A DNA stretch of 57,529 bases from an uncultured Candidatus Saccharibacteria bacterium (GTDB lineage: Bacteria > Patescibacteriota > Minisyncoccia > Phycocordibacterales > UBA9973). Under the pieces are notes generated by a model, which saw nothing but the letters and a program-made list of their open reading frames with translations, was not told the DNA's origin and made no database searches. The position numbers and the translations under genes are program-made. Location of the stretch: NCBI GenBank assembly GCA_964481155.1, contig CAYZSX010000002.1, positions 1-57,529 of the forward strand. The letters run 5' to 3'. Numbering within the stretch: the stretch's first letter is position 1; every line of letters begins with the position of its first letter. Below are positions 11,783-42,695 of this stretch, piece by piece.

Positions 11783-12167
11783 GTTGTTTCATTACTTCTT
11801 GGACGTGCGCGACGACCTCACTTGGGGTTGCATTTGCTTTGACGATATAGCTTGCTGCACCGAGCGATTTGCCACGTGCGATATCTTGTTCTTGACCAAG
11901 GTTTGAGAGATATATTTTGATAGTGTTTTTTGCGAGACCTTCTGCATTAATCTTTTCGAGAAGCTCAAATCCATCAGTGCCGGGCATCACAACATCCAAA
12001 AGCATGACATCTGGGACAGTGCCCCCTCGGAGCTTCTCGAGCGCCTGATCTGCCCCACTTGCAGTCACCACTGTATATTTTTCTTGCGAGAACCGCATCG
12101 CGTACATGTCGAGGAGGAAACTATCATCATCAACAATCAAAATCGTTTTTTGTGCATTTGCATCCAT
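11772..12167 (-). CDS. stand-alone response-regulator receiver domain (CheY/PilH-like)
   Basis: KTILIVDDDSFLLDMY...PDVMLLDVVMPGTDGFELL...IYLSNLGQEQD...KSLGAASYIVKA. It is a receiver domain only, with no output domain. The start was moved to MDANAQK at 12167, downstream of the pilB stop at 12202. Confidence 0.85.
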   Translation of the reverse strand: MDANAQKTILIVDDDSFLLDMYAMRFSQEKYTVVTASGADQALEKLRGGTVPDVMLLDVVMPGTDGFELLEKINAEGLAKNTIKIYLSNLGQEQDIARGKSLGAASYIVKANATPSEVVAHVQEVMKQHGV

Positions 12168-12201
12168 ATGTCTGAGTATACTCTGATTCCCTTTGTTTCG
12201 T

Positions 12202-13929: not shown

Positions 13930-13930
13930 G

Positions 13931-14584: not shown

Positions 14585-14585
14585 A

Positions 14586-15158
14586 CTACTGTTTTAGCCA
14601 ATACGTTTTTAATGCGACCTTGTATGTCATGCTCGTTGCAGCGCTCTGCTGGACACCTTGATCCGCAGGGCTAAATTCTATACTGGTCACATCGACAAGT
14701 CGTAGGTTTTGCTCTAGGTCTGACATAAATGCGAGGAAGTTTTTGTATTGTCCAGTTGTTTGGAACGAGATAGCAAACTCACCGTACGAACGCTTGGCAA
14801 GAGATGGGTCTTGGACCGCACCGGGAGTAGTGTCTTCTGCTGTTTGATAATCAACATTGCGCAATGACGAAAGACCGTTTTTGTTTGCAAGCGAGTTGAT
14901 CTGGATGATGAGACGGATGTTATCAACCGCATCTGGCAAAAGTGTGCGGAGGTTATCGAGATCAGTTTTGCTGATACTGTTGTATCGAGCAATGAGTTCA
15001 TCACGAGAACGAGCGAGTTTGCTTGCTGTATCGAGATTTGCTTGCGCAGTGTTTACTGACTGACGGGTTGCCTGGAGCTCTGCATATTGCGGCTTGATAA
15101 GCACGATGAACACCGCGACTGATACTGCTATGAGAAGTAGAGAGAAAAAGTATTTCAT
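14586..15158 (-). CDS. pilO: PilO-like pilus assembly protein
   Basis: 190 aa with an N-terminal TM, a coiled coil, then an alpha/beta domain. It follows pilN with a 4-nt overlap. The call rests on position and architecture. Confidence 0.65.
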   Translation of the reverse strand: MKYFFSLLLIAVSVAVFIVLIKPQYAELQATRQSVNTAQANLDTASKLARSRDELIARYNSISKTDLDNLRTLLPDAVDNIRLIIQINSLANKNGLSSLRNVDYQTAEDTTPGAVQDPSLAKRSYGEFAISFQTTGQYKNFLAFMSDLEQNLRLVDVTSIEFSPADQGVQQSAATSMTYKVALKTYWLKQ

Positions 15159-15790
15159 ATAGCTGTTTGTTTTTGAAGACCTGCGATAAATGATTCGTAT
15201 GAGAGTGATGCAGGATTTACCTCAAACACGAGTTTGAAGGTCACCGCATTGGTTTTGTCATCGAGTGTGAGGTTTGAGAACACAGGATTTTTGATAAGAC
15301 TATTTTGGGTAAATGAATCAGACTGGAGTGCAATCGTCGCATAACTCTTTGCAGATCCAGTGAGTGTCACTTTGACTATTTTTGATTTGGTCGCAGGGTC
15401 AGTGTCAAATATATAACTAAACGTCTTGTACTGGACCGATCGAAGAGTCGTCTGCTCAAGCGCTGCAAAGATAGGAGATACGACGATATGGTTATCGATC
15501 GTTTGCTTGACCCCAACGATACGCGCATCGAGCCGCTTCATATCTGCAAGGAAATCCGTACCGATCCCCTTTCGGGCTTCGTTGATCTGTAGATCAAGTT
15601 TTGCTTTTTGTGCGAGAAGATTTTTGTGATAAAAACGCACGCCAACATATGACACGCCAGTAGCGATCACTACAACTGCAGCAAGAAGTGAGAGCAGTCC
15701 CACAACATGAGAACTTTTGTGCGAAACAGGTACCGGCTCGGTACTCACCGGACGCTTTGGGATAAACGATGTAGGCATCATTGGTTCCAT
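15155..15790 (-). CDS. pilN: PilN-like pilus assembly protein
   Basis: A bitopic protein (LLSLLAAVVVIATGVSYVGV) directly after pilM. The start is probably one of the Mets in MEPMMPTSF; the longest ORF reaches 15829. Confidence 0.6.
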   Translation of the reverse strand: MEPMMPTSFIPKRPVSTEPVPVSHKSSHVVGLLSLLAAVVVIATGVSYVGVRFYHKNLLAQKAKLDLQINEARKGIGTDFLADMKRLDARIVGVKQTIDNHIVVSPIFAALEQTTLRSVQYKTFSYIFDTDPATKSKIVKVTLTGSAKSYATIALQSDSFTQNSLIKNPVFSNLTLDDKTNAVTFKLVFEVNPASLSYESFIAGLQKQTAI

Positions 15791-15853
15791 TGATACTCTA
15801 GTATACCGAGTAACACTAGTAGAGTGCAAGGAAAAACGATTGATTTCAGTGGA

Positions 15854-16987
15854 TTACTGCTGAAACTTTTTGAGTGCGAGACCAAGCGCGATAGAAAACT
15901 CTGGCCCCGTTGTCTTGAGTACTCCTGCGAGGAACACTGGTGCTTCGACTTTCGAAAACGGATCAGCAATCGCAAGCTCTGCAGAGAAACTCTGACTTGC
16001 ATACTCGAGGAGTCCCTTGGTCATCGCACCACCGCCGGTAAAAATAATCTTGCCAATGTTTTTGTTATACCGTTTTTCATATGCGAGGATGTTGGTATTT
16101 GCTTCTTGAAAGATATCGACAAACTGTGTCTTCATGATGTCAGAGACTGTCGGATGCTCAGGGCTTGCGATGAGCCCAAACTGTTTTTTGTATTCTTCTG
16201 CTTTATCAAACGTGACTTCGAGTGAGCGCGCGATTGCTTGCGTCATATCTTGGCTTCCACGATTGACAAGTCTAAACGTCTCGACGATACCGTGCTCGAC
16301 GATCGTGAGCTTAGTCTTGGACGCACCGATATCGATGATAAGCACCGGGAACAGTTCACGAGTCAGTGTCGAACGGATATGGCTAAAGATCTCGATCTCG
16401 AGCGAGTCGTTTGCAAGTCCTGTCTTTTGGAGGACGTCGGTGTATTTGACGAGTGTTTCGTTGAGCGTTGCAACAACCAGTACTGACATCATTGCCTCTC
16501 CGCCAGACTCTGCGACGACGCGAGATGCGATACCTGAGTCTTCGCGACGCGGGATCACGTACCAGTCGAGCGACACATCTTCGATCGGGACAGGGATAAA
16601 CTTTTTGGATTCGGCAGGGACCACTTGTGGCAAGTTTGCTTCATCGATCGCCGCAGGAAGCTGCAAGATAAAAATGATACATGAGATAGATGGGATACCG
16701 ACGACTACATTTTTACTTTGGATATTAGTTTCCTTGAGTGCATCGAGGAGTGCTTTGGCAGTAGTATCTGCATCGAGCACTACCACCTGTCCGAGCATGC
16801 CGCCTTCTTTGTATTGCCCAAGAGAGAGCGCACCGTATGTCGAAAGGAGCGCGCGACCGTTTTCACGTTTGAGCTCGACGACTTTGATCGACGAAGACCC
16901 GATATCAATACCGACTGCCGTGTTGTCCTGCGCCTTGCCAAAGATACCACTGAGTGCAGATTTGAGTCCTGAGAGTATACTGTCCAT
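15854..16987 (-). CDS. pilM: PilM, actin-like ATPase of the type IV pilus alignment complex
   Basis: 377 aa. Actin/FtsA-like phosphate motifs (VGIDIGSSSIKVVEL, LIIDIGASKTKLTIV, IIFTGGGA). It is the first gene of the pilMNO set. Confidence 0.85.
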   Translation of the reverse strand: MDSILSGLKSALSGIFGKAQDNTAVGIDIGSSSIKVVELKRENGRALLSTYGALSLGQYKEGGMLGQVVVLDADTTAKALLDALKETNIQSKNVVVGIPSISCIIFILQLPAAIDEANLPQVVPAESKKFIPVPIEDVSLDWYVIPRREDSGIASRVVAESGGEAMMSVLVVATLNETLVKYTDVLQKTGLANDSLEIEIFSHIRSTLTRELFPVLIIDIGASKTKLTIVEHGIVETFRLVNRGSQDMTQAIARSLEVTFDKAEEYKKQFGLIASPEHPTVSDIMKTQFVDIFQEANTNILAYEKRYNKNIGKIIFTGGGAMTKGLLEYASQSFSAELAIADPFSKVEAPVFLAGVLKTTGPEFSIALGLALKKFQQ

Positions 16988-26679: not shown

Positions 26680-28176
26680 TTATCCAAGGATAGAATCTTG
26701 TGTCTTTTTGATCGTACTGTTTACTGATTCTTGTGTGCGAACAATGTCTTGCTTGATCTGCACAAGCGCGCTTCGCTCTGTTTCTGTGAGATGTTGTGTC
26801 GAGTGAGATTTGAGAAGTAACCGTGCATATTCTTCGAGATCACTATCGATTGCTTGGAACTTTTTGCGAACATCGTTTTCTCCGACAAGCAGATCAGCAG
26901 CAACACGTTTCTTGAAGCGCTTGTACCGAGCAAGTGTATAGATAATGATAAAGAAGAAAACAAAGAGGAGTGCGATGAGTGGAATAATGAGTGAGAGCGT
27001 GTTGGTGAGCCAGAGTGTGAGACGTGAAAATACGTCATCGTGCACCACGATACGTACTGGTGCCGTTGGGGTGCTCTGAAGTCCTCCTTCAGATACAGCA
27101 CGTGCATAGATCGAGTAGCTACCGGATGAAGCTTTTTCTGGAGAGATATAGTTAAACTCACCCTTTTCATTAGCAATGGTTGTAGACTCAACTGGTCGAG
27201 TATCTGGATTGACGCCGGTGATGCGCGCAAAGAACGGGAATCGCCCCGGCAATCGTGTAGTGGTAAAGACTACTTTTGCTCGAGGATCAGCGATACCCTT
27301 GAGTACCATATATTCACCCGCAAATACATTTGTTGGGTAATCAGTGATAACTGGCTGACTCAAGTTTTTGGTTACAAAATCTGCAAAGGCAGTCAGTAGC
27401 ACACCATCTGGAGTAAGTGTTTTGAATTTTATGAGATGTGTACCCCGGGCAAGCTGCGGTGTCTGAAATACATGTGTCCCATCATCGGTCCATGTGATAA
27501 GTGGCAAATCATCTATTTGTACATCGTATTGCTGACCAGGATCAAGGAGTGTCGTGCTGATACGAAACTGTGTATACGGAGTAAATTCGTCTGCTTTAGG
27601 CACCTCTTCAACAGAAAGTGTATGCGTTGTCGTTGTTGGAACTACAGGGGTTTCTGTTATTGTTTGACTTGGGGCGGCAGTAGCTTTGGCAGGCCCGATG
27701 ATAACACGAGCGCTTTCACGAGCATTTAAAACATTGGTACCCTCCCCATTGTTTGCAAGGACGCTACCACTTGTCACCTCGACTGATGCAGTACCAGCCT
27801 TTTTTGCTTTAAAAACAAGTGTCACTACGGTGCCGTTTGTACCAGTAAATCCATTGAGTGCAATCGCTTCAAACTTGGCAGTACCTGTCGCATTTGAAAA
27901 CGTTGGTTCCTGTGCCCACAAGGTCATGATAGAACCTGTTTTGGATATAGAAGAGAGTGAAAGTAAATCAGTCGGATATGTAATCGTTGCAGCAGCACCA
28001 TTGATAGACTGCGTATCACTTGAAACTGCCACTTTGACCCGGACCGTATCTCCAACAGCGTATGAAGTTGATGTCGGGATAGCTTTGAGGACAGCTGCAT
28101 GCGCGACGATGCTCCCACTCGCAAGTGAGAGCATGCATACGACAATCATTATCTGTATCTTATGTTTTATACGCAT
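26680..28176 (-). CDS. membrane-anchored cohesin-domain surface protein
   Basis: Signal peptide (MRIKHKIQIMIVVCMLSLASGSIVAHA). Cohesin-like module (AVGDTVRVKVAVSSDTQSINGAAATITYPTDLLSL...FEAIALNGFTGTNGTVVTLVFKAKKAGTASV). Beta-rich Ig-like segments, a C-terminal TM (LIIPLIALLFVFFFIIIY) and a roughly 85-aa charged cytoplasmic tail. Confidence 0.7.
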   Translation of the reverse strand: MRIKHKIQIMIVVCMLSLASGSIVAHAAVLKAIPTSTSYAVGDTVRVKVAVSSDTQSINGAAATITYPTDLLSLSSISKTGSIMTLWAQEPTFSNATGTAKFEAIALNGFTGTNGTVVTLVFKAKKAGTASVEVTSGSVLANNGEGTNVLNARESARVIIGPAKATAAPSQTITETPVVPTTTTHTLSVEEVPKADEFTPYTQFRISTTLLDPGQQYDVQIDDLPLITWTDDGTHVFQTPQLARGTHLIKFKTLTPDGVLLTAFADFVTKNLSQPVITDYPTNVFAGEYMVLKGIADPRAKVVFTTTRLPGRFPFFARITGVNPDTRPVESTTIANEKGEFNYISPEKASSGSYSIYARAVSEGGLQSTPTAPVRIVVHDDVFSRLTLWLTNTLSLIIPLIALLFVFFFIIIYTLARYKRFKKRVAADLLVGENDVRKKFQAIDSDLEEYARLLLKSHSTQHLTETERSALVQIKQDIVRTQESVNSTIKKTQDSILG

Positions 28177-29038
28177 ATCGTTTGTACAACCACACCATTG
28201 CAGGAAAGATACCAAGTAACAATACAACAATAACTATCGCAACTGAAACTCTGTTGATCGGTGTACCGATTGTAACTATTGTTTTGTTGCCTGCATAATC
28301 AACTGCACGTACCTCTAGTGTAGCGCTATCGCTCTGATCTTCCAAGCGATATGGGCTTGATATTCGTTTCCATTCTCCATTTTGCTCTCGCACTTCTACG
28401 TACCATACCCCTGACTGCGCATCAGTCGCAGAAAATACAAGTACAGCGTCGCCATTATATAGATCAGATTCATGTACTCGCTGTGCTTGCAGTACTGGTG
28501 CGATAGTATCGGTGACAGTATATGTTTTGTTTGATGCTACAGAAGAAACCGTGAGTGTACTCTCAGATGAAGTGATCGGTGTGATCGTACCGTCACCATC
28601 ACCAGCTGCAACTGATCCACTCGAGACGATACGCGCAGTTCCTGGTGCGATTGATTCAAACACCAAACGAACGAGTTTCCCTGACTTGCGCACCGATGGT
28701 TCAAATGGATCGATAAATCCTGCAAAACCGTTTGGGATGATACCGCTAAATGACGTAGTACCCTGTCCCATCTGTGGCGATTCAATCCAGAGCGAGACGA
28801 TAGATTCACCGTCTTCGACTCGGACAAGTCGCAATGTATCAGTGCTGTACCTAATAGAGCTTTCGATACCATTAATAGTTGCACCCTCGGTATCAAGGAG
28901 CGCATCAACAGTGAACTGCTCTCGGAGATCAACCGATGCTGGATGCTCGAGATTGATCACCGCAGCATGTGCATAGAGCGGCAGTGCGAGTGCAATGATC
29001 ATACTCATTATAAAAGTGTGATGTGTTAGTATACGCAT
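28160..29038 (-). CDS. membrane-anchored cohesin-domain surface protein (short paralogue)
   Basis: 292 aa with a signal peptide. Cohesin-like module (EQFTVDALLDTEGATINGIESSIRYSTDTLRLV...IIPNGFAGF...GKLVRLVFESIAPGTARI), one Ig-like domain and a C-terminal TM (VAIVIVVLLLGIFPAMVWLY). Confidence 0.7.
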   Translation of the reverse strand: MRILTHHTFIMSMIIALALPLYAHAAVINLEHPASVDLREQFTVDALLDTEGATINGIESSIRYSTDTLRLVRVEDGESIVSLWIESPQMGQGTTSFSGIIPNGFAGFIDPFEPSVRKSGKLVRLVFESIAPGTARIVSSGSVAAGDGDGTITPITSSESTLTVSSVASNKTYTVTDTIAPVLQAQRVHESDLYNGDAVLVFSATDAQSGVWYVEVREQNGEWKRISSPYRLEDQSDSATLEVRAVDYAGNKTIVTIGTPINRVSVAIVIVVLLLGIFPAMVWLYKRYAYKT

Positions 29039-29040
29039 AC

Positions 29041-29922
29041 TTATCCTGTCCAGTTAAATGCCATGATTGAAAAGTCGACAAGTGTGACCGCGCCGTCGTT
29101 GTTGAGATCGACTTTGACAGGCACTCCAGTCTTTTTGTACCAAAACGCCATGATTGAAAAGTCTATCAAGTTTACTCGAGTATCGCAGTTGACATCGCCT
29201 CGAAGTTTACTACAACTACCCGGTGTTTTGGGGATACTCACATCACCAACCTTAAACGGAACTGCATCACTAAACAAACTCACATCAGCAGGTGCAATCG
29301 CTGCTGATTTGGTACTGTGATCACCGTACTCGAGCACACCACTATCAAATCGCAAAAAGTAGGCTCCTGATTGGTTGGTAGGGATCCGTCTGATGTGTTG
29401 TGTTGGCGAATGCACAACGATCGAGACTTCGGCATTGGGTATACTTCGTCCAAAGATAGCGATAGGTTCACCCTTTTTGACCTGCAGTTTGTCGACATCG
29501 ATTGTTGGTGAGATAAATATCCCCCCGATTGTGACCGATGTACCAGCGGTCACATATACTGGAAACGAATACGATGTTGACTTGCGACCATCACTGTCTT
29601 CGCCATACACACCAAACGTATATCCTCGCTGAACAAGATCAGAAAGGGTTACCGAAAACTTTGCCTGCGGATCTGCAACAGTCGTTGCGACGATCACCCC
29701 GTCTTGCACGATGACTACTTTAGAAAGCGGGTAGGCCATCCCCGAAAATATCACCTGCGTAGGACTCGACATACTTCCACCACCTCCCCCACCCCCTGGG
29801 GCACTTGGACTATTGACCTGTGCTGATATAACAACAGAGTTTACGGTTTGTGCTTGAACACCCGCACTACAGAGGACTAACGTAAGTGCACATACGAGGA
29901 TATATCTACTGAGCATCGTCAT
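29041..29922 (-). CDS. secreted dockerin-containing protein
   Basis: The start was moved to MTMLSRYILVCALTLVLCSAGVQAQ. A poly-Gly linker and two beta-sandwich-like segments follow. The C-terminus is a duplicated dockerin Ca-binding repeat: GDVNCDTRVNLIDFSIMAFWY and DLNNDGAVTLVDFSIMAFNW. Confidence 0.7.
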   Translation of the reverse strand: MTMLSRYILVCALTLVLCSAGVQAQTVNSVVISAQVNSPSAPGGGGGGGSMSSPTQVIFSGMAYPLSKVVIVQDGVIVATTVADPQAKFSVTLSDLVQRGYTFGVYGEDSDGRKSTSYSFPVYVTAGTSVTIGGIFISPTIDVDKLQVKKGEPIAIFGRSIPNAEVSIVVHSPTQHIRRIPTNQSGAYFLRFDSGVLEYGDHSTKSAAIAPADVSLFSDAVPFKVGDVSIPKTPGSCSKLRGDVNCDTRVNLIDFSIMAFWYKKTGVPVKVDLNNDGAVTLVDFSIMAFNWTG

Positions 29923-30919
29923 ACTCGCTACCACGAGCACGAGCGATGATGAGTTTGTTGTAGTGATGAAGTGCTTTTTTACCAATCCATCTGATACAGA
30001 TACCTGCAACAATGATGCAGATAAGTAATTGCCAAGGGAACACAAAGAACCTGACAACATCTTTTGCGTGTTGTTGTTGAACACCGTATGCAATATCGAT
30101 ATGCGCACTATAGAGTCCAAATGCAAAGTTTTTCCATTGATATCGAACTGTGTGGAGGAACTTTTTCATTGCGCTTGCCGCAAGTGGCGCTCCGTCTGGA
30201 TCGGAGTATTTGATCCAGTCAACTTTAAATTTACGTGTGCTTGCCGGGAGTACGTTGCCTTGTACAGGGTTTGCATCGATACGATCTGCTCGTAGGTATA
30301 CTGTGTTGCGAATCGTGATGGTACCAGTAGGCTTCACGCGATCTCCACCATCATTTTTGAATCGATACTCAAACGACACTGGAAGTGTGTTGTACCAAAA
30401 TTTATTTTCTTTTGTTTTAAAATCTACAAGCCCACCTGCTTCTTTGACATCACCATTGACTGAAAGCAGTACGAGCATACCTGTCTTGGCGCTGATTGCG
30501 ACTTCTCCTGGTTTGTCTGATTCTGGTGCAGTCCCCCAAAAGATGGCACCAAAGTACCCTCCAGGAGTTGTGTCTTTGGGGATAGCAATACTGATAGAGA
30601 TCGTTTTGGTTTCATTGGGACCGAGAGTGATAGAATCTGCAGTTTTCATCCACGTAGCGATACCTTCTGAAGCACTTGTAAAAGAAGGTGTCCCGGTATC
30701 ACCCTGCGCTTCAAAGTTTGCATATGACGAATAAAACGTTGCGCTTGTAGATTGCTCGTTGATGAGCGTCATTTCTTCGGTGAGCACCTGACCCGGATCA
30801 CCTTTGATCTCGATACGTACTGGGGTGATCGTGAGTGCGTATGTAGGGATTGTGTACACAAAGAACGCGATCAGTCCCAAAATGATGTACCGGAGTGTTT
30901 GGTGAGCAGATTTGATCAT
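29906..30919 (-). CDS. surface protein with DUF916/DUF3324 (CscA)-like architecture
   Basis: 337 aa with a signal/anchor sequence. Beta-rich domain (LTITPVRIEIKGDPGQVLTEEMTLINEQ...TPGGYFGAIFWG), a second beta domain, a C-terminal TM (WQLLICIIVAGICIRWI) and a short basic tail. This topology matches the CscA-type proteins of Gram-positive WxL clusters. The family assignment is from memory and was not searched. Confidence 0.5.
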   Translation of the reverse strand: MIKSAHQTLRYIILGLIAFFVYTIPTYALTITPVRIEIKGDPGQVLTEEMTLINEQSTSATFYSSYANFEAQGDTGTPSFTSASEGIATWMKTADSITLGPNETKTISISIAIPKDTTPGGYFGAIFWGTAPESDKPGEVAISAKTGMLVLLSVNGDVKEAGGLVDFKTKENKFWYNTLPVSFEYRFKNDGGDRVKPTGTITIRNTVYLRADRIDANPVQGNVLPASTRKFKVDWIKYSDPDGAPLAASAMKKFLHTVRYQWKNFAFGLYSAHIDIAYGVQQQHAKDVVRFFVFPWQLLICIIVAGICIRWIGKKALHHYNKLIIARARGSEYDDAQ

Positions 30920-30922
30920 AGA

Positions 30923-32005
30923 TTAAAACGTGCCAGTTGCTACGTATGTGATTGATGTTGCATACGAACCAGCAGGGGTTGTGGAAGCAATATTGGCAAG
31001 ATAGTGCATTGCAATAGAGTCACTTGTCGGAGCTGAAGCAGAAGCAAGTGTTGTGGTAGTTGTAGGAACAAAGTTCCAATCGTTTGCACCGTTGTTATAT
31101 CCAGAAGCAACTGTTCCACCTCCAGTGAGTGCTGCTGCGAGTGCAAACTGTTCACTACCCGGGGTACCGTTTGCATCACCAGTAATTGTTGCCGCATCGA
31201 TCGTATTGAGACCTGAAGTAAGTGTTGGGCCATTGTATGTCAACACATATCCGCCAGTCGCATTGGTTCCAACAGTCATTGTGTGTGCAGTGGTATCTGT
31301 TCCTGAACCAGAAGCAGCGCTGTTTGCGTATCGTGCGGCTGCAGCAGAAAGAGTACCAAACCCGATTGATGCATCGTCGTTTGCAAACGTAAGAGTAGGG
31401 TTAACTGTTGCAGTGATCGAAACGACTGAATTGGTCTCTATCGAAACTGCCGCAAGCCCAGTGTCGCCGTTTGATTGTGTAAGTGAAACTTGTGATGAAT
31501 CAACATCTGAACCATTGGTCATGGTACCAGTACCACTTGCGGTAGTACCGTTTATCACGAAAGTAATATTTGCATTTGCGCCTGACGCATTCCAGCTTGC
31601 ACAAGTAGTGATTGTAAACGTGTTGTTTGTCGTATCGATAGTGACTGTATAGTTGTTACTCCCAGCACTACACGAGGGCGCTGCGCCCACTGCGACTGGT
31701 GCTTGGTTACTTCGAGTACCGTCACTAAACGCAAAATCTGATGTCTGCCAGTTGCCGATACTGTTGAGAGTAAAATCAGTATTTGAAAAATCAATCGCAT
31801 ATGTTTCTGCGGTAGCAACCGTATCACCCCCCACCAATGTCCAGGTAAGTGTATGGGTTGCAGTCGTTGATGGCAACTGCGTTGACATTGTGTCTTTGAA
31901 CGAAGAGACCGATGCGGCTTCTGCAATGAGTGAGAGTCCTGTGTGGACAAAAAGAAGAATCGCGACAAAGAGTACCGAAAGAATGTTTTTTGTGTACGTT
32001 TTCAT
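30923..32005 (-). CDS. secreted Thr/Ala/Gly-rich protein sharing its C-terminal domain with the giant protein
   Basis: 360 aa with a signal peptide (LLFVHTGLSLIAEA). The C-terminal roughly 165 aa (IGFGTLSAAAARYA...AHTMTVGTNATGGYVLTYNG...GSEQFALAAAL...NIASTTPAGSYATSITYVATGTF) align with the C-terminus of the 2129-aa protein encoded immediately upstream. Confidence 0.7.
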   Translation of the reverse strand: MKTYTKNILSVLFVAILLFVHTGLSLIAEAASVSSFKDTMSTQLPSTTATHTLTWTLVGGDTVATAETYAIDFSNTDFTLNSIGNWQTSDFAFSDGTRSNQAPVAVGAAPSCSAGSNNYTVTIDTTNNTFTITTCASWNASGANANITFVINGTTASGTGTMTNGSDVDSSQVSLTQSNGDTGLAAVSIETNSVVSITATVNPTLTFANDDASIGFGTLSAAAARYANSAASGSGTDTTAHTMTVGTNATGGYVLTYNGPTLTSGLNTIDAATITGDANGTPGSEQFALAAALTGGGTVASGYNNGANDWNFVPTTTTTLASASAPTSDSIAMHYLANIASTTPAGSYATSITYVATGTF

Positions 32006-32054
32006 ACTGCACTGCAGTATACCCTACGTCAAGCGACACCGTCTAGTGGATAAC

Positions 32055-35000
32055 CTAAAAGTTTCCTGTAACAACATAGGTGAGATCAGTTGCATAACTA
32101 CCTGCAGGAGTTGTGGAAGCGATGTTGCACATATATCGAGCTGAGTATGTCGTATCAATTCCATCACCCGAGGAAGCGCTTGCGACCTGGCTAGTAGTTG
32201 TCGCATCGGCGCCGTACGCAAACCCCGACGCTGCATACGGACTCGAGACTGTACCACTACCACCACTGGCCACAAGCCTGAGCCCGAACTGCTCGCTACC
32301 GATACTTGGCACCGTGTTGGTCCCACCGATTGCACTGATCGTGTGCCCTACCTTGCCGAGCGATGCCCCTCGCACCGTGAGTGAGTATCCTGATGGCGCA
32401 CTTGTACTGATTGTGATTGTGTGCGCCTCTGTTTCAGTACCACTTCCTACCGCGTCTCCTGTTGCATATCTTGTACCAGTTGCAGAAAGTGCTCCAAATC
32501 CAATCGTTGCATCAGAGATACTAAACGTGATTGATGTATTGATCCAACAAGTACCGTTGTTGCCTGAGTTGGTAAGGTTTGTCGGATTGAGAAAGATAGA
32601 TCCGCTCTCACAAGCACTATCTTGTACATCCACATAACTAACACTCGCTGTACCTGTTGGGTGAAATTTCCATTGAGTACCACTCGAGTCTGATCGCAAT
32701 CTGATGAGGTTGCCTAATGATCCTGTCACCGTAAACAATCCACTCACGGTAAATATCGGCGATCCGCTCGTCTGGAACTGTACTTCTTTTGCAGCGGTGT
32801 GGGTGATAGTGAGGTTGTTGAACGTCGTTGCCCCGCTCACAGTCGCAGTTGTAGCGCCATTCATCACTACTGTGGACGTCCCCGCGGTAAACGTACCTGT
32901 GTTGGCCCAGTTGCCGGTGAGTGTGATCGTTGCCCCTTGACCGAGGACTGTACCAGTACCACTGATAGTAAGATTGCCCGTAGTAAATGCGTAGTTTTGA
33001 CCACTAACTGTATCGAGCGTACCCGCAGATACTGTTGTCGTACCAGAGACAGTCGTTGCAGCAGCGAGACTTTTGGTACCAGCTGTTGCAATAGTCAAGT
33101 TGAAGTACGGGTTTGTTGTTGGGGTTTTGATGGTTTGCGTAGATCCGCCATAGATGACAGTGTTGGTACTCGTCGATGGCACAAGGGTGCCTGTAGACAT
33201 GACTGTGCTATCAAACTCTGTCGTAGATCCTGACCCTGTTGCAAATGTTGACGACGCATTGCCACCTGTTACCGATGAAACAAAGTTAACAAGACCAGTG
33301 TTGTTGTTGGTCAGCGTCACTCCACTTGCGATCGTCACCGCCCCACCAAACGACATGTTTGAGCTCCCTGCGAGGTTTTGGTTGGCACTAAATATCGTCG
33401 CAGCACTACCACTATTGAACGTTGTACCATCCATCGTGATGCCGTCTCCAAATGATGTTACCGGATTTACCGGAGACATATCAAACACACCGCCTGGATC
33501 AATCGTCACCAATCCGGTAAACGTCTTGGTCCCAGTTGCTGATGTCACTGACACAAGCGATCCGTCAATTGTTGTTGTGCCTGCAAAAGTGACTGCCACC
33601 CCACCAAGAGAGAGCGTCCCTGATGGGATACTCAGGTTCCCAAATGTATACGCACCAGTGATCGACGATGATCCTGTGGAAACAAGTGTACTAGATGCAT
33701 TGATTGAAAGCGTCCCGTTTGCAGGGATAGCTCCTGTGAGGTTAAGCGTACTGTTTGCGCCCATGGTCAAAAAGTTTACTGAAGCTATACCGACAAAACT
33801 TATACCGGCACCTGCAGTGAGTGTGCCTGTATCGAAACTAACATTGATAGTTCCGCCACCGCTAACACCTCCCCAAACGATCAATCCGGAAGATGCAAGT
33901 GTGCAATCCCTCATTGTAAGGTTGATGCTACCAGTGACTCCTGAGTTTCCTCCTTGGAGGCTTATACCTGTTGCACCAACAGTGAGCGCCCCCGTTGCAC
34001 TTGCTGCACACGTGATATTGGACTGACCGGTCGAAGTCGGGCGGTTGATGGTGAGCGACCCTGCAGTGATGTTGGCAGTGCCGTTCATGGTGATGGTTTG
34101 TGTGTTGGCAGTTGCGTTAGCAGTGTAGGTGACCGCACCAGTGACGTTGGTGGTAGAGCCGGTGGTGAGTGAGAGACCGTTGGATGCCACTGGGCTTGCG
34201 ATCGTGAGCGCTCCCATGGTGACTGTACCGGTGTTTGAGTTGGTGAGCGTCACCCCAGAGTTGACCGTCACGGTACCCCCGAGTGATATGTTGCCCGCAC
34301 CGAGCAAACTCAGCGAAGTGCCCATGGTCACCGCACCAGTACCACTGTTGAACGTCCCTGTACTATCCACCGTGATATTGCTATCAAAACGAGTCGTTGT
34401 TGCAACAGCAGAAAGATCAAAAGATCCTCCAGAGTTGACCGTGACAGTTCCAGTAAATGTCTTAAGACCTGTAGCCGATGCACACACCAGCGAACCTGAA
34501 ACAACTGTGTTCCCAGCAAACGTAATCGCAACATTGTTAAGTGTAGTTGTGCCAGATGAAACCGTAAAATTACGAATAGTATACGCACCCGAAATTGCCG
34601 CAGTACCAGTTGTGTAAAGAGTGTTTGCACTATCAAAAGTTAATGTTCCACCAGAACCAAGTGTCCCTGTAAGGTTGAAGTTACCGGAACCTATGTTGAG
34701 CACATTGCGCGCTGCTGTACCAGTAAAGGTGACACCAGCACTTGCAGTAAGTACTCCGGTAGTTGTTGTGAATGTGATATTTCCTCCTGTAGTACCTCCC
34801 GCGATCGTGAGTAGTCCACCCGACGTAAAGCTGCAGGTATTCATTGTGATGTTGACAGTCGCAGTAGCTGTCGAGGCACCGTTGATCGTTGCGGCCCCCG
34901 TCGTTGCAAACGTCCCTGTTGCACTTGCTGCACACGTGATATTGGACTGACCGGTCGAAGTCGGGCGGTTGATGGTGAGCGACCCTGCAGTGATGTTGGC

Positions 35001-38000
35001 AGTGCCGTTCATGGTGATGGTTTGTGTGTTGGCAGTTGCGTTAGCAGTGTAGGTGACCGCACCAGTGACGTTGGTGGTAGAGCCGGTGGTGAGTGAGAGA
35101 CCGTTGGATGCCACTGGGCTTGCGATCGTGAGCGCTCCCATGGTGACTGTACCGGTGTTTGAGTTGGTGAGGGTCATGTTGGTTGGGACGGTGACCGTAC
35201 CACCAAGCGAGACGTTTCCTGATCCGCTGATCGTGCGCGTCCCGGTACCAGTGAGCGTCACTGCCCCACCACCACTATCAAATGTCGTACCGTTTGCCGT
35301 GATGTTACCACCAAAACTCGTCACTGCTGCAAAGTTGCTACCTGTACGCAAATCAAATATACCTCCTGAGTTCACTGTAATCCCCGCACTAAACGTCTTG
35401 GTACCGGTCGCGCTTGAAGTCGTCAATGTCGCACTGTTGGCAACTGTCACGAGTCCCGCATACGTGATCGCAACCGCACCCATCGTCGTTGTACCACTGT
35501 TGACGTTGAGTATACCGAACGTCGTCGCGCGACTCAGTGTCACGGTACCAGTTGTGTTGAGCGCCGTACCTGCGTTGATCGTCACGGTACCACCAGTACT
35601 CATCGTGCCAGTAAGGTTGATCGTCGAGGCACCGGCATTGGTGATTCGTGCTTGTGCAGCGGTACCTGCAAACGTGATACCTGCAGTCGTAGTAAATGTA
35701 GAGCCAGCAGAAAGCGCAAGTACACTGTTGCGACTTGCAGTTGCACTTCCTGTGATCGTGATACCTGCGGTCGAAAATGTACCGGATGTACCTCCTCCAA
35801 CCGTGATAGTATTGGCAACCGCAGCACCGGGTGATGGGATACTCGTCGTACCAGTGACCGTAAACGTCACTCCGTTGCTGACCGAAAGACCTGCAGCTAC
35901 TGTCGATGCAGCAAACGTGAGTGATTTGATAGTGACAGTTGTGTCTGCAGTCACCACTACTCCTGAGTTGATTGTGAGGTCATCGTTTACCCCGGGACGG
36001 TTGCCAGTACCCGATCCACCACTTGCAGCACCCGTACAGTTGACGAAGCTTGCGGTTGCACTCCATGTACCTGTAGCAGTTGCATTACAAGCCGCGTCCG
36101 ATGCAATCTGCCACTGACGATCTTCTTCAAAAGAACTTGTGCCTGTCATCACCGCTGGACCCAAAAGATAAAACTCCGGACTTATATCTGGTGCATTGAA
36201 ATAATATCCAAGCTGCACGGTCTCCCCCGCTGATATCGATACATCCCAGGTGATGAGTTTGGTATCACCGTCTTCGGTCACACTATCGTATGCTTGGCTT
36301 TGCTGTGGGAGCGATACCTCAAACGACACAGGGACGCGTTCGGTGACAGTCCCCTCCCACGCAGTATCACTGGTTACTCGGAGTGTCATCGGGTATAGCG
36401 CAACAGGATAGATACGTGTCGGGCCTGTGCGCACAACCGCAATTGATAAATCTGACTGAACACTAAACGTGTCAGTGATTTGCTTTGTTCCGTTTGCAGT
36501 GTGTGCAGTCAAACGCATTGTATAGACACCTTGTTCGCCGGGAATCGTATAGTATGCAAAATAATCAGGCACACTAATGACATTGTTTGGACCACACTCT
36601 GGAGCACGGACGATACTTCCATCATCAGTACTTTTGCTTACAACAGTACCGCTCGGTGTACTAATCACAAGATCAAGATCTGCATCACAAATAGTATGCC
36701 CACCATCATTGAGTACACCCATTTGTAAATACGCTGTAGCGCCTGGACGGTACACACTCATATCAGTGTTGATCGCAAGTACTCCCCAACTAAAGTCTTG
36801 CTGTGAGACAAGGATCGCTTGCGGCGTCGTGACAGTCACAACGAGTGTGTATTTACCCGGACGAAACGACCGATCAGGACGATCGATCTGCACACGGCGC
36901 TTACCAGTTGTGGTGTCAGTTATCACTGCTACTGGTATATCCGTTGGTGCACCGTTGTCATCGAGTATCTGTGCTTCGACATTTGAAGTTTGCGCCTCAG
37001 CAACGGTCGGAGTTAGTAGTGATTTGAGCAAAGAAACAGGTGATGATTCGCTTTGTGGTTGTTCGAGAGGAGTAGGTGGTGGCAATATAAGTTCTTTGGA
37101 AGTATCGATTGTTTCTTGGATAGTCTGTACCACTTCATCAATCGCTTGTGTATGCTCTGGATCATCTACCTTTTCACCAAGTACCCCGGCAGTATCTTTG
37201 ACGACATCAGCTTTGCCTTCTTGGACGAGTGTCTTGATATCTTCGGTTGTGTAGTTGGGAGTTTCAAGGGTAAAGGTAACATCTTCGGTTGGATTAAACC
37301 CATCTTTACCACTGATGAGAGAGTCAGCATCTTTGAGGACAACAGTTGGTTTCGTAGGGACGTTTTCCATGTCGGTATACTCAACATCGAGTTTGACCGC
37401 ATCGAGATACACTGTCGGGAGCGCATCAAATGTTGGCAACGTTTTGAGCGCTACTTGGAGCGTGCTAAGGTTTTCCCATTTTTCAAGCGGAATCTCAAAC
37501 GATGCACGTTTCCATTCACTTCGACTGATCGTACCGAGTGTGTTCCAGGTAGTACCGTCGAGTGTGTACGAGACTTCCATAAACCCATCTGAAACTGTGC
37601 CGCTGCTCGACTCAGTGACTACTTCCTCGATAGGCACAGAGGCATCTTGTGCTTCTATTGTATCTGCTGTACCCACTGCTTCTTCTGCGGAGCTACTTAC
37701 ATCAACAGCGGGTGCTTCTTCTTGTACTGACTGTGTTGATACCTCTTCAGAAACAGTGGGAGGAGTTGGGTCTGACTCTTGCGCAAGGACACGAGTTGTG
37801 AAGAGGTGTTTGAAAAATGACACCGTAGTACTCTCGGTAGCAGATTCTTGTGCGGGGACAGATTCTTGTACCGATTGTTGTTCGATTGTAGAACTATCTT
37901 GTTCTTGAGCTGGGATGACGATACCTTGTGCGGGTATATCAAACGGTTGCGGTTCGGTACGGATCGATGATGAATCTTTGTCTTCTACCGACCATGAGAA

Positions 38001-38444
38001 CGTGAGTTTAAATGTCTTGGGGTTTGCGTTTTCGGGAATCTCTCCGGTAAATGATCCGCAATATATAGAGGAGACTGTGCCCGACATCCGCGCAGAGTTT
38101 TCTACTGAAAAGTCTTGAGCGCTTGATTCGTTGGGAAGTGAGGGTGCGCCTTGCGCATTGTCAACACGTTCCCAGTCGCCCAAACAGGACTGCGGATAAA
38201 ACGTTGCAACTGACGCATGTCCTGTCGAAAACGAACTGAGCACGAGTGCACCAATGATAATCGATGCGATGATAAAAAACTTGTGTTGGTGTGCAAACCA
38301 CCACGCGGTGATCTGTGCTTTGTTGATTTGGATCGCAGGGAGCTTTTTTTTGAGATCGAGTACTGGTCGCGACACCGTACGCGCGATATCTCCCACGACG
38401 GGTGGTTTTTGCGGCTCGGTTTTCTTGCGACCTGAAATTTTCAT
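32055..38444 (-). CDS. giant (2129 aa) membrane-anchored repeat-containing surface protein, putative adhesin
   Basis: Basic N-terminus plus a TM anchor (FFIIASIIIGALVLSSF). An acidic Ser/Glu/Val-rich linker and Ig-like domains follow. The central roughly 1000 aa are Thr/Gly/Ala/Ser/Asn-rich, predicted beta-helix, arranged as at least three modules of about 308 aa. The C-terminal domain matches that of the 360-aa neighbour. All long ORFs on the opposite strand are shadows of this gene. Confidence 0.85.
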   Translation of the reverse strand: MKISGRKKTEPQKPPVVGDIARTVSRPVLDLKKKLPAIQINKAQITAWWFAHQHKFFIIASIIIGALVLSSFSTGHASVATFYPQSCLGDWERVDNAQGAPSLPNESSAQDFSVENSARMSGTVSSIYCGSFTGEIPENANPKTFKLTFSWSVEDKDSSSIRTEPQPFDIPAQGIVIPAQEQDSSTIEQQSVQESVPAQESATESTTVSFFKHLFTTRVLAQESDPTPPTVSEEVSTQSVQEEAPAVDVSSSAEEAVGTADTIEAQDASVPIEEVVTESSSGTVSDGFMEVSYTLDGTTWNTLGTISRSEWKRASFEIPLEKWENLSTLQVALKTLPTFDALPTVYLDAVKLDVEYTDMENVPTKPTVVLKDADSLISGKDGFNPTEDVTFTLETPNYTTEDIKTLVQEGKADVVKDTAGVLGEKVDDPEHTQAIDEVVQTIQETIDTSKELILPPPTPLEQPQSESSPVSLLKSLLTPTVAEAQTSNVEAQILDDNGAPTDIPVAVITDTTTGKRRVQIDRPDRSFRPGKYTLVVTVTTPQAILVSQQDFSWGVLAINTDMSVYRPGATAYLQMGVLNDGGHTICDADLDLVISTPSGTVVSKSTDDGSIVRAPECGPNNVISVPDYFAYYTIPGEQGVYTMRLTAHTANGTKQITDTFSVQSDLSIAVVRTGPTRIYPVALYPMTLRVTSDTAWEGTVTERVPVSFEVSLPQQSQAYDSVTEDGDTKLITWDVSISAGETVQLGYYFNAPDISPEFYLLGPAVMTGTSSFEEDRQWQIASDAACNATATGTWSATASFVNCTGAASGGSGTGNRPGVNDDLTINSGVVVTADTTVTIKSLTFAASTVAAGLSVSNGVTFTVTGTTSIPSPGAAVANTITVGGGTSGTFSTAGITITGSATASRNSVLALSAGSTFTTTAGITFAGTAAQARITNAGASTINLTGTMSTGGTVTINAGTALNTTGTVTLSRATTFGILNVNSGTTTMGAVAITYAGLVTVANSATLTTSSATGTKTFSAGITVNSGGIFDLRTGSNFAAVTSFGGNITANGTTFDSGGGAVTLTGTGTRTISGSGNVSLGGTVTVPTNMTLTNSNTGTVTMGALTIASPVASNGLSLTTGSTTNVTGAVTYTANATANTQTITMNGTANITAGSLTINRPTSTGQSNITCAASATGTFATTGAATINGASTATATVNITMNTCSFTSGGLLTIAGGTTGGNITFTTTTGVLTASAGVTFTGTAARNVLNIGSGNFNLTGTLGSGGTLTFDSANTLYTTGTAAISGAYTIRNFTVSSGTTTLNNVAITFAGNTVVSGSLVCASATGLKTFTGTVTVNSGGSFDLSAVATTTRFDSNITVDSTGTFNSGTGAVTMGTSLSLLGAGNISLGGTVTVNSGVTLTNSNTGTVTMGALTIASPVASNGLSLTTGSTTNVTGAVTYTANATANTQTITMNGTANITAGSLTINRPTSTGQSNITCAASATGALTVGATGISLQGGNSGVTGSINLTMRDCTLASSGLIVWGGVSGGGTINVSFDTGTLTAGAGISFVGIASVNFLTMGANSTLNLTGAIPANGTLSINASSTLVSTGSSSITGAYTFGNLSIPSGTLSLGGVAVTFAGTTTIDGSLVSVTSATGTKTFTGLVTIDPGGVFDMSPVNPVTSFGDGITMDGTTFNSGSAATIFSANQNLAGSSNMSFGGAVTIASGVTLTNNNTGLVNFVSSVTGGNASSTFATGSGSTTEFDSTVMSTGTLVPSTSTNTVIYGGSTQTIKTPTTNPYFNLTIATAGTKSLAAATTVSGTTTVSAGTLDTVSGQNYAFTTGNLTISGTGTVLGQGATITLTGNWANTGTFTAGTSTVVMNGATTATVSGATTFNNLTITHTAAKEVQFQTSGSPIFTVSGLFTVTGSLGNLIRLRSDSSGTQWKFHPTGTASVSYVDVQDSACESGSIFLNPTNLTNSGNNGTCWINTSITFSISDATIGFGALSATGTRYATGDAVGSGTETEAHTITISTSAPSGYSLTVRGASLGKVGHTISAIGGTNTVPSIGSEQFGLRLVASGGSGTVSSPYAASGFAYGADATTTSQVASASSGDGIDTTYSARYMCNIASTTPAGSYATDLTYVVTGNF
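33994..34247. repeat. 254-nt exact direct repeat, copy 1, inside the giant gene
   Basis: Base-for-base identical to 34918..35171 when compared by eye across the full length. The offset is 924 nt, or 308 codons. Confidence 0.95.
34918..35171. repeat. 254-nt exact direct repeat, copy 2, inside the giant gene
   Basis: Identical to 33994..34247. It encodes ...TNSNTGTVTMGALTIASPVASNGLSLTTGSTTNVTGAVTYTANATANTQTITMNGTANITAGSLTINRPTSTGQSNITCAASATG, which appears twice in the protein. Confidence 0.95.
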
Positions 38445-38488
38445 GCTATCTAGCAGTGTACCACGGGCTCGTGCTACAATCAGCGCAT

Positions 38489-40880: not shown

Positions 40881-42695
40881 TTAGAGCGTTTCTCCTGCTG
40901 GAGGTTCGGGGTCTTGTGACACCTCTTGTTCTTGTGGTGTTTGCGTATCAGTAGGAGGCTCTGTGGGAGCATCTGCTTCAACAGTGGTTTGCACTGGTTG
41001 TACTGGTGCAGCGGACTGTGTCTGAAGGAGCTGTTTAAGTTCGACGAGCTGCGCCTTAGTCAGACACTCCGATGATCCATCAGGATCGGTGAGACAGATC
41101 TCTCCGGTAAAGATACGCGTGATGCGGTTCCCGACATCGCCAAGCCAGTTTCTGAGAACACCTGCAAACGACCCTTCCGTATTAAGCGATGCAATATCCT
41201 GCACCTGCACATCAAGCTCTTGGATGGCTTTGGTGAGTATAGGAGCCATGCCAGCGTAGTTGACTTGGAGGTATCCATTGGATGCTTGTGAGACAAGGAG
41301 CGGGAAATGTTGCCTCATGTCTTGTGCGATAAACCCAACCTGGGTGCCAACTTTGGTGTTCTGGCTCCATTCATACGTCACTGTTCTGAGTGAACGTAGT
41401 GTATCGAGCGTATCAGTGAGGTCACTCACGTCTGTCTTGAGTCGTTCATCTGACGTACAGGCGATGCCGGTACCTGTGGTGATCGTACACTCAGTTCCGC
41501 CAGTGCCAGTAAAAACTGTGGCATCGATAGGCACCCCACCGTTACCAATCATTAGTTGGTTTGAAGCGGTGTTGGTAGCACCAGTACCAAGCGCGATACT
41601 ATCTACAAAACCGCCAGTTGAAGTATCATTTCCAATCAGAATCGAGCTTGAACCTCCAGTGTTGTCGACTGTGTCACCCTCGCCCGCCTCGTAACCAATA
41701 AAAATTGAGTTTGCAGCATTGGTTGCACCATTACCCGAGTTAAAACCAAGCATAGTCGAATTGGTTGCAAACGCAGCACCGCTTCCTGAAAAAAAACCTA
41801 TAAATGTTGCCCTGTCTGCATTTGAAGCATTAAACCCAGCGCTTTTACCAATAGCAACGGAAGCAGATGCATTTGAAGCAGCAACCCCAGACCCCTCTCC
41901 TATAAAAACACTATCTGCTGCATTTGTAGCACCATAACCACTAATTGAACCAATAAAAACGGATTTTGTTGCATCGGTAGCATTAGCACCAGCATTTTCA
42001 CCAATAAAAACACTTCTGAAATATGTAGGCGGAAATCCGCTACTATATACAGAATCTGTTGCGGTATTTAATCCAGCATTTTCACCAATAAAAACAGAGT
42101 ACGTTGCGTTCGGGGCAGTATACCCGGAAAAACCTCCTATAAAAATAGAATATTTTGCGTTCGTTGCATTTTTCCCGGCTTGTTGTCCAAAAAAGTTTGA
42201 ATATTCTGCATTTGTAGCTCCTAATCCAGCTTGATTTCCGATAAAGTTTGAAACTTGCGCATTTGTTGCAAGGTAACCTGCACCCCCGCCAATAAAGACT
42301 GCGTTCGTTGCATTAGTTGCATTACCACCAGCATCAGTTCCTATGTATACGGTATCAACACTTGATCCTCCTGTTCCCGCATTCCCAAGCCACGTCTCTG
42401 TCCCGAGCTCTGAGGTCGAGCCAATAAGATTTGACCCTCCACTCACTGTAGCCCAGCTCAGTGTCGTACCGTCAGTAGTGAGATATTTTCCATTGTTTCC
42501 TGTTTGATCAGGGATGATGAGTACCGTACAGTTCGTATCCCCTGGTGCACATGATGGATCAAGCGTTTGTCCTCCCGTGTATGGTGAGCCAGGCGGTGTT
42601 GCGTATGCGGTGAGTACCGAGAATGCGCTCGCGATGAGGAGTGCGAGGATTGTTTTTTTGTGGTTGTGATACGTTGTTACAACAAAAGACAGCAT
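40881..42695 (-). CDS. tail-fibre-like surface protein with a peptidase S74 intramolecular chaperone domain
   Basis: 604 aa with an N-terminal signal/anchor (ILALLIASAFSVLTAYA). About 300 aa of periodic repeats of roughly 17-18 aa follow (NATNA..S.FIG..AG). Next come CTSDERLKTDVSDLTDTLDTLRSLRTVTYEW...GFIAQDM...VNYAGMAPILTKAIQEL, typical of the S74 self-cleaving chaperone of phage tail spikes and endosialidases. The tail is Pro/Thr/Gln/Glu-rich. Confidence 0.75.
   Translation of the reverse strand: MLSFVVTTYHNHKKTILALLIASAFSVLTAYATPPGSPYTGGQTLDPSCAPGDTNCTVLIIPDQTGNNGKYLTTDGTTLSWATVSGGSNLIGSTSELGTETWLGNAGTGGSSVDTVYIGTDAGGNATNATNAVFIGGGAGYLATNAQVSNFIGNQAGLGATNAEYSNFFGQQAGKNATNAKYSIFIGGFSGYTAPNATYSVFIGENAGLNTATDSVYSSGFPPTYFRSVFIGENAGANATDATKSVFIGSISGYGATNAADSVFIGEGSGVAASNASASVAIGKSAGFNASNADRATFIGFFSGSGAAFATNSTMLGFNSGNGATNAANSIFIGYEAGEGDTVDNTGGSSSILIGNDTSTGGFVDSIALGTGATNTASNQLMIGNGGVPIDATVFTGTGGTECTITTGTGIACTSDERLKTDVSDLTDTLDTLRSLRTVTYEWSQNTKVGTQVGFIAQDMRQHFPLLVSQASNGYLQVNYAGMAPILTKAIQELDVQVQDIASLNTEGSFAGVLRNWLGDVGNRITRIFTGEICLTDPDGSSECLTKAQLVELKQLLQTQSAAPVQPVQTTVEADAPTEPPTDTQTPQEQEVSQDPEPPAGETL

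Follow-up and report, generated by a model that had tools for sequence, protein, structure and literature searches.

The pili of the Pam system were described in 2026 in Candidatus Mycosynbacter amalyticus, one cultivated species of the Saccharimonadia, and are thought to make the first contact of parasitic cells of the candidate phyla radiation (CPR) with their hosts (Troman et al., bioRxiv 10.64898/2026.03.03.709456). Cryo-electron microscopy of the filaments of this organism revealed two pilins, PamA and PamB, with a conserved inter-domain linker that is inserted into the C-terminal domain of the neighbouring subunit. In addition, the operon codes for the PapD/FimC-like chaperones PamC and PamD with a C-terminal transmembrane (TM) helix, for the single-domain tip pilin PamT, and for the RbmA-like membrane terminator PamR, which unites in one protein two fibronectin type III (FnIII) domains, a strand at the N-terminus and a TM helix at the C-terminus (bioRxiv 10.64898/2026.03.03.709456). 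The NCBIfam model NF058581 (CPR_Pam_pilin_C, "Pam pilus system pilin subunit") derives from this preprint, and NF058579 is a further NCBIfam model of the Pam system. The WxL clusters of Firmicutes have a three-part organization with a small WxL protein, a large WxL protein and a WxLIP consisting of DUF916, DUF3324 and a TM segment, a strand of which is predicted to enter the WxL domain (PMC10599100). Here we analyze a cluster of six genes (G1–G6) at positions 26680–38444 of contig CAYZSX010000002.1 (assembly GCA_964481155.1) from an ultrasmall, uncultured Candidatus Saccharibacteria bacterium of the Patescibacteria (CPR); the analyzed stretch of 57,529 nucleotides is called the window in the following. 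We suggest that this cluster probably encodes a Pam-type pilus, a thin surface filament which would assemble by donor-strand exchange and whose base would be held by a cohesin–dockerin joint, as far as it is known here from its genes and from predicted monomers.

The six open reading frames (ORFs) are tightly packed on the minus strand and were confirmed with the start codons that give signal peptides:

32055-38444, minus strand: G1, 2129 aa, putative giant tip adhesin
32058-32543, minus strand: C-terminal domain of G1 (aa 1968-2129), Pam pilin C-domain and putative donor-strand acceptor
30923-32005, minus strand: G2, 360 aa, most likely the major pilin
31394-31438, minus strand: linker of G2 (aa 190-204, ETNSVVSITATVNPT), presumed donated strand
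29906-30919, minus strand: G3, 337 aa, candidate membrane-anchored chaperone
29041-29922, minus strand: G4, 293 aa, starting with MTMLSRY; signal peptide, donor-strand-like N-terminus, poly-Gly linker, two immunoglobulin (Ig)-like domains (Big_6) and C-terminal dockerin
29815-29835, minus strand: donor-strand-like motif VVISAQV of G4 (aa 30-36), followed by GGGGGGG (aa 43-49)
29044-29202, minus strand: dockerin of G4 (aa 241-293) with the two F-hand Ca2+ loops DVNCDTRVNLID and DLNNDGAVTLVD
28160-29038, minus strand: G5, 292 aa; signal peptide, cohesin-like module (aa ~26-165), OmpL47-type/Ig-like region (aa ~194-253) and TM segment (aa ~253-287) at the extreme C-terminus
26680-28176, minus strand: G6, 498 aa, starting with MRIKHK; signal peptide, cohesin (aa 33-144), Ig-like region, TM segment (aa ~386-419) and a charged cytoplasmic tail of ~80 aa

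From G1 to G6 the intergenic spacings are 49, 3, −17, 2, and −17 nt, in agreement with the coordinates of a preliminary description of this DNA, which had listed six co-directional minus-strand genes with gaps of 2–49 nt or overlaps of 17 nt. The two overlaps are located at G3/G4 and at G5/G6 and suggest translational coupling. The cluster is bordered by gyrB upstream and by the convergent thrS downstream. An N-terminal hydrophobic segment is present in all six products and is signal-like in G2, G4, G5, and G6, and C-terminal TM segments are found in G3, G5, and G6. Enzyme domains were not found in the six proteins by Pfam and NCBIfam scans. The previous statement that every product has a signal peptide or a TM anchor and that none looks like an enzyme holds. 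About 11 nt 5′ of the ATG of both G1 and G2 there is a TACACT/TATACT box (38445-38484 and 32006-32054), and a Shine-Dalgarno sequence is not obvious upstream of these two genes. The boxes hint that the tip and the pilin each have a promoter of their own which is nearly leaderless, while the promoter and terminator consensus scan scored no better than shuffled sequence.

The assignment to the Pam system is based on G2 and on the end of G1. Judged from its sequence and its AlphaFold2 (AF2) model, G2 is most likely the major pilin, with a signal peptide, an N-terminal beta-sandwich, a linker and a C-terminal Pam pilin domain. It scores 64.5 bits against NF058581 (curated cutoff 55), and the model of the monomer (pLDDT 90.9) contains two beta domains (aa 36-189 and 205-360) and between them the unstructured linker of residues 190–204, for which the pLDDT is low (62). 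In the pilin family few stretches are as conserved as this linker (consensus E-T-N-D-V-V-[NT]-[IV]-T-A-T-V-x-P-T-L-T-F): A199 is invariant, and V195, T198, V201, P203, T204, and F207 are each conserved in at least 90% of the family. All 379 homologues of G2 are ~360 aa long and are from Patescibacteria where the source is named. A sequence search with G2 against the PDB gave no match and its family profile yielded only chagasin matches at chance level. The isolated C-terminal domain of G1 reaches 68.4 bits against the same model (curated cutoff 55, E 7e-19), and residues 1968–2129 of G1 are 49% identical to residues 201–360 of G2 (E 4e-25). Thus, the 2129-aa and the 360-aa protein indeed share their C-terminal domain, as had been noticed from the sequence. 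This domain had been termed pilin/WxL-like; the pilin part of the name is supported by NF058581 and the WxL part is not, since neither a Pfam WxL match (E up to 1) nor a W-x-L (Trp-x-Leu) motif was found in the C-domains of G1 and G2.

We regard G1 as a putative giant tip adhesin. The protein starts with a basic leader of 50 aa, which is followed by a single hydrophobic segment (aa 54-76) and by the residues GHA and SV with a signal-peptidase-like site between them. The leader may or may not be cleaved, so that the segment is either removed or serves as an uncleaved anchor; of the "N-terminally anchored repeat protein" initially proposed, the repeats are present and the anchoring is unproven. 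Residues ~80–780 comprise acidic, Ser/Thr-rich and Ig-like regions, and residues ~780–1960 form a nearly uncharged T/S/G/A/N-rich repeat fibre of ~1200 aa. The fibre holds three super-repeats of ~312 aa with copies up to 74–77% identical, which together with the uncharged composition suggests that it is fast evolving. Tandem Repeats Finder did not find DNA tandem repeats in G1, the protein repeats being of long period (~312 aa) and diverged, and the Pfam scan gave only weak MG2 and WxLIP_HBD matches. Against the PamT model G1 scores 46 bits (cutoff 240), and the alignment is confined to the C-terminal half. Directly before the C-terminal domain, where the pilins have their linker, G1 carries the sequence NSGNNGTCW, in which the donor-strand motif was not found, and the tip proteins of other loci likewise are devoid of the linker motif beside this domain.

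G3 consists of a signal peptide, two beta-sandwich (Ig-like) domains and, at the C-terminal end, a TM helix (aa ~296-318) with a basic tail behind it. Its AF2 model (pLDDT 83) shows the two beta-sandwiches and a long C-terminal helix (296–336 in the model). A Foldseek search with this model found as best matches the WxLIP of Enterococcus faecium (9i1y and 9i25, E 6e-11, TM-score 0.52–0.56), followed by RbmA (1.6e-9) and by the chaperones CfaA, CsuC, Caf1M, and DraB (5e-9 to 7e-7); 9i1y shows WxLIP in the free state and 9i25 in complex with a long WxL protein (PDB 9i1y, 9i25). On the sequence level the similarity is weak: the Pfam WxLIP_PGBD match is below the threshold (22.4 vs 27.3 bits), the PDB profile search reaches E ~0.1 to EfmWxLIP1, and a plain sequence search against the PDB gave no match. 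Among 885 homologues, which are from Patescibacteria where the source is named, the top 120 are at least 50% identical to G3. Invariant in G3 is R35, which comes to lie at about position 7 once the signal peptide is removed. We take this invariant arginine near the mature N-terminus to be reminiscent of Arg8 of PapD. As G3 matches both WxLIP and the chaperones of chaperone–usher systems, "CscA/DUF916-like" and "PapD-like chaperone" appear to be two names of the same fold. The DUF916/DUF3324 (CscA)-like topology previously assigned to G3 is in agreement with the Foldseek result, the Pfam score remaining sub-threshold, whereas its predicted fold better fits a membrane-anchored donor-strand chaperone of the PamC/D type than a mere anchor.

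The secreted protein G4 connects two sets of features. Its C-terminal part matches PF00404 (Dockerin_1) with 23.5 bits (cutoff 22.9), and Pfam Big_6 (PF17936) is also matched. The family profile finds solved dockerins (2y3n_B at 5e-5, also 5nrm, 1daq, 2mte, and 4fl4), and the Ca2+-loop residues D243, D247, N251, D254, D272, D276, and D283 are invariant in the G4 alignment, which bears out the duplicated dockerin repeat recognized before. We found 1221 homologues, from Patescibacteria where named, and most of those listed carry both PF00404 and PF17936. The mature N-terminus starts with QTVNSVVISAQVNS, which is followed by a poly-Gly tract and the first Ig domain. Within this N-terminus the strand V-x-I-S-A-x-V, whose residues A34 and V36 are invariant, resembles the strand V-x-I-T-A-T-V of the pilin linker. 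For counting we used the degenerate seven-residue motif [VILFT]x[VILF][STN]Ax[VIL]; a strict position weight matrix built from this linker proved too stringent. The motif is present in the N-terminus of 96 out of 120 G4 homologues from the database search and of 69 out of 76 from genomes of the Genome Taxonomy Database (GTDB), and in the linker of 116 out of 120 pilins. It was counted only once in the rest of the protein among the 120 G4 homologues, in 5/120 chaperones, in 3/76 G5-type and 5/71 G6-type cohesin proteins, and in the N-terminus of 41/916 unrelated background ORFs. The enrichment in the N-termini of G4 is given as 87%, compared with 4.5% in the background. The tether after the motif consists of 34% Gly and has a median length of 25 aa; since a Gly-rich linker follows it, the motif lies outside the Ig domain. 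Thus, G4 mimics in its N-terminal strand the donated strand of the pilin, and from its sequence we suggest that it could act as a secreted adaptor or terminator.

G5 and G6 were initially described as two C-terminally anchored cohesin proteins, and TM segments are present in both. For G6 the cohesin is identified by Pfam (PF00963, 39.1 bits, cutoff 24.1, E 1.1e-9), for G5 through its homology to the cohesin module of G6 (34% identity, E 1e-17). A joint profile of both proteins matches the solved cohesins 5aoz and 5m2o, and 9/24 members of the cohesin family match PF00963 (best 4e-11). G5 scores 39.7 bits against NF047446 (cutoff 40), and its family comprises 4753 representatives. Each cohesin protein has one cohesin module. 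The position of the TM segment is conserved in 73 of 76 relatives of the G5 type, which end within ~3 residues of it, and the TM segment with a cytoplasmic tail is conserved in 69 of 71 relatives of the G6 type with a median of 46 aa after the membrane. The tail of G6 (aa ~420-498, 26680-26920) is conserved, charged and probably helical, which suggests that only this type of the two cohesin proteins contacts something in the cytoplasm.

The gene order proved to be conserved. In a scan of the GTDB species genomes a relative of G3 was found in 231 genomes and the best 80 loci were profiled with our own hidden Markov models. In 74/74 loci with enough downstream DNA the chaperone gene is directly followed by the dockerin gene and by one or more cohesin genes, and 70 of these 74 loci have two or more of the latter; the count covers relatives of the chaperone with an identity of ~42% or higher. 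The block occurs in differing genomic contexts, and since dozens of genomes share this order of genes, the cluster is not a chance arrangement. Thus, the conserved synteny that the preliminary description had proposed to look for exists for the adjacent chaperone, dockerin and cohesin genes. Most of the relatives that carry a name belong to the Nomurabacteria, Paceibacterota, and Parcubacteria. The gene in the position of G1 always keeps the Pam C-domain, its product being either ~330 aa long and PamT-like (n=21) or 519–2642 aa long (n=15). A common N-terminal module with three "sTNF"-type repeats is found in longer variants of G4 (P0176, P0181, and P0231, 413–455 aa) and in small tips of ~330 aa; in the loci L002 (tip at 8879-9886) and L006 the PamT model aligns to this module with its N-terminal part. 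L006 (GCA_964384035.1, 4716-14501) is a distant Pam-like locus of a different arrangement with two pilins, a PamT-like protein and three chaperone-like TM proteins. It also encodes a cohesin-like TM protein of 315 aa and a dockerin protein of 511 aa, whose N-terminus resembles the N-terminal domain of a pilin and does not carry the strand motif of G4. As dockerin and cohesin stand beside pilins in this locus as well, the association of the pilus with cohesin and dockerin may predate the clade studied here.

The domains of the six proteins might give a hint how the pilus is assembled. All six products would be exported by Sec, and G3, tethered by its C-terminal helix, would cap the open groove of the Pam pilin C-domain in both G1 and G2. 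As an acceptor without a donor strand, G1 would start the fibre and end up at the distal tip, where it would present its repeat fibre of ~1900 aa as an adhesin. G2, being both donor and acceptor, would form the shaft, each linker strand (VVSITATV) entering the groove in the C-domain of the previous subunit. G4 has a donor strand and no acceptor domain and would be the proximal terminator: its strand VVISAQV on the flexible poly-Gly linker would fill the groove of the last pilin and so end the polymer. The dockerin of G4 would then bind in a Ca2+-dependent manner to the cohesin of G5 and/or G6, whose C-terminal helices would reside in the membrane. Thus, we suggest that the task ascribed to PamR in M. 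amalyticus would here fall to G4 together with G5/G6, divided between secreted and anchored polypeptides.

The proposed system has in common with the Pam pili the restriction to CPR, a tip that may be acceptor-only, the TM-tethered PapD/FimC-like chaperone, the absence of usher and sortase, the dependence on Sec and, according to the predicted model of G2, the arrangement of N-terminal domain, conserved linker and C-terminal domain known from PamA and PamB. In contrast to M. amalyticus there is one chaperone instead of PamC and PamD, one pilin instead of PamA, PamB, and PamE, and, as the putative tip, a fibre of 2129 aa instead of the small PamT. A gene for a PamR-like terminator was not found in the cluster, the strand belonging to G4, which is secreted, and the TM helices to G5 and G6; instead we find a secreted dockerin protein with a donor-like strand and two membrane cohesin proteins. 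Furthermore, the preprint reports the Pam system mainly from Saccharimonadia and Microgenomatia, whereas the relatives of our cluster are mostly the lineages named above.

From the chaperone–usher pili (Pap/Fim, Csu, CFA/I, and Caf1) the donor-strand exchange proposed here is well known, as are the chaperone with two Ig domains and the two-part tip adhesin, which in FimH and PapG also has a C-terminal pilin domain without a donor strand. G4 would resemble the terminator PapH in that it would donate a strand without being able to accept one. On the contrary, there is no outer membrane in our case and an usher domain was not found in the cluster or its neighbours, the chaperone is tethered to the membrane, anchoring is proposed to proceed via cohesin and dockerin, and the donor strand is, with the exception of G4, an internal linker and not an N-terminal extension. 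The cohesin–dockerin part is similar to cellulosomal and non-cellulosomal pairs, as it comprises a type-I-like dockerin with duplicated Ca2+ F-hands and a jelly-roll cohesin on a cell-anchored protein. It differs from these pairs by the absence of enzymes, carbohydrate-binding modules (CBM) and a multi-cohesin scaffoldin, by an anchor that is a C-terminal TM helix and not an S-layer homology (SLH) domain or a sortase substrate, and by the proposed cargo, a pilus.

A different conclusion could be reached when starting from the WxL/Csc clusters. G1 and G2 would then be single molecules of a non-filamentous surface complex, held at the membrane by the WxLIP-like G3 with a strand in their end domain, and cohesin and dockerin would be an extra scaffold. 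Such a complex would agree with G3, whose best structural and sequence-profile matches are the WxLIP of E. faecium, including the one bound to a long WxL protein, and which has the weak WxLIP_PGBD match. It would also agree with the logic of the WxL clusters, which likewise combine a small and a large protein with a common C-terminal domain and a TM-anchored protein with two Ig domains (PMC10599100). Nevertheless, the end domain scores above the cutoff of the Pam pilin C-domain and lacks the Pfam WxL match and the Trp-x-Leu motif, an LPxTG-like motif was not found in any of the six proteins and hence no LPxTG partner is present, cohesin and dockerin genes are added, and the host belongs to the CPR. 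In addition, the conserved and exposed linker of G2, which suggests polymerization, corresponds to the strand that polymerizes PamA and PamB in the solved filaments, and these two proteins are experimentally filamentous. A non-filamentous complex thus appears quite unlikely to us. It is also rather unlikely that G1–G3 build the pilus while G4–G6 are co-regulated and physically separate, G4 being an Ig surface protein displayed on membrane cohesins, for example as a scaffold for adhesion or of the S-layer-like kind. It is in line with such a separation that cohesin and dockerin modules are widespread outside cellulosomes, that the pilin domain was not found in G4, and that the contact between G4 and the pilin is a proposed one. 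However, separate systems would have to account for the adjacency in 74/74 loci across differing contexts and for the 17-nt overlap of G3 and G4; a strand resembling the pilin linker on a Gly tether has no obvious role in a protein that is simply displayed, and the distant locus L006 even fuses a region similar to the N-terminal domain of a pilin to a dockerin. Finally, the presence of cohesin and dockerin modules could point to a miniature cellulosome-like enzyme scaffold for the degradation of polysaccharides. We rejected this interpretation, which we consider highly improbable, because glycoside hydrolases, CBM or other enzyme domains were not found in the six proteins or their neighbours; besides, there is a single cohesin module per protein and the only dockerin of the cluster resides on an Ig-domain protein.

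Several observations also weigh against the anchored Pam-type pilus which we prefer. A Foldseek search with the G2 model against the PDB, in a set without the Pam structures 25PZ and 25QA, returned only generic beta-sandwiches (cohesin dyads, MSCRAMMs and integrins, TM-scores <0.3), which neither confirm nor deny a Pam or WxL fold, and G3 matched no NCBIfam Pam model. The hydrophobic segment of G1 might be an uncleaved anchor, which would result in a different topology. The dockerin score of G4 itself barely exceeds the Pfam cutoff, and its strand motif is short and is carried by 4.5% of unrelated N-termini. When compared with the linker of the pilin from the same locus the strand of G4 has 4.73 identities out of 12 and in shuffled pairs 4.46 ± 0.105, a small excess which is weak evidence for the mimicry and is confounded by phylogeny. 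G5 has no direct Pfam cohesin match, the presence of two or three cohesin proteins per locus is without explanation, and the linkage count applies to the closer chaperone relatives, the best 80 of 231. Moreover, the contrast to the operon of M. amalyticus relies on the description in the preprint, and ORFs not described there may hold cohesin or dockerin genes.

The window contains further features. A complete type IV pilus cluster (5124-16987, minus strand) is located ~10 kb from the Pam-like operon and encodes PilM, PilO, a PilB-like ATPase, a response regulator, a PilT-like ATPase, PilC, five pilins with the N-methyl motif and a prepilin peptidase. Apparently the cell thus produces two filament systems that are unrelated to each other. 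Just upstream of gyrB (40881-42695, minus strand) a protein of 604 aa with a Peptidase_S74 domain (endosialidase-chaperone, tail-fibre-like) is encoded, and the closest relative, L001, has a counterpart of 798 aa at the same place; a tail-fibre-like protein has been reported to co-localize with pam operons (bioRxiv 10.64898/2026.03.03.709456). At the end of the window, within 56386-56991 (minus strand), we find the 5S rRNA (56386-56495), a 23S rRNA match that covers only model positions 2656–2912 (56566-56810), and directly upstream of the latter a match to a group I intron that stays below the threshold (56854-56991, 31.7 bits, E 6e-6). The partial 23S match and the adjacent intron match suggest that the 23S gene is probably interrupted by an intron. 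Intron-interrupted 23S genes are common in CPR.

It had been noted that no described system was known to join the logic of the WxL clusters and of cohesin–dockerin scaffolds in one operon with a giant fibre. For the core of the cluster this no longer applies, as the Pam pilus was described in 2026. For the combination of this pilus with cohesin and dockerin the statement stands: our literature search found no paper linking either module to it, and the preprint mentions none of cohesin, dockerin, or WxL (bioRxiv 10.64898/2026.03.03.709456). New are the proposed cohesin–dockerin coupling, the dockerin protein bearing a donor-like strand, the putative giant tip and the link to WxLIP. More tentatively, we propose that the cohesin–dockerin pair is, by way of the dockerin terminator, the standard joint between pilus and membrane in a large clade of CPR, and at the same time that Pam chaperones and WxLIP belong to one fold family, the WxL/Csc and Pam systems being evolutionary relatives. 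If true, this would be a previously undescribed structural use of cohesin and dockerin.

The results imply that a Pam-related system is widespread in relatives mostly named Nomurabacteria, Paceibacterota, and Parcubacteria, with the chaperone in at least 231 species-level genomes. The host-attachment or surface-scaffold apparatus suggested from the sequence is a reasonable interpretation, and a tip that can be a giant, rapidly varying adhesin is a candidate determinant of the host range. A dockerin terminator and membrane cohesins would be a possible answer to how a pilus without usher and sortase is terminated and anchored. In addition, the structural link between the Pam chaperone and the WxLIP of enterococci and lactobacilli may help to explain the WxL clusters.

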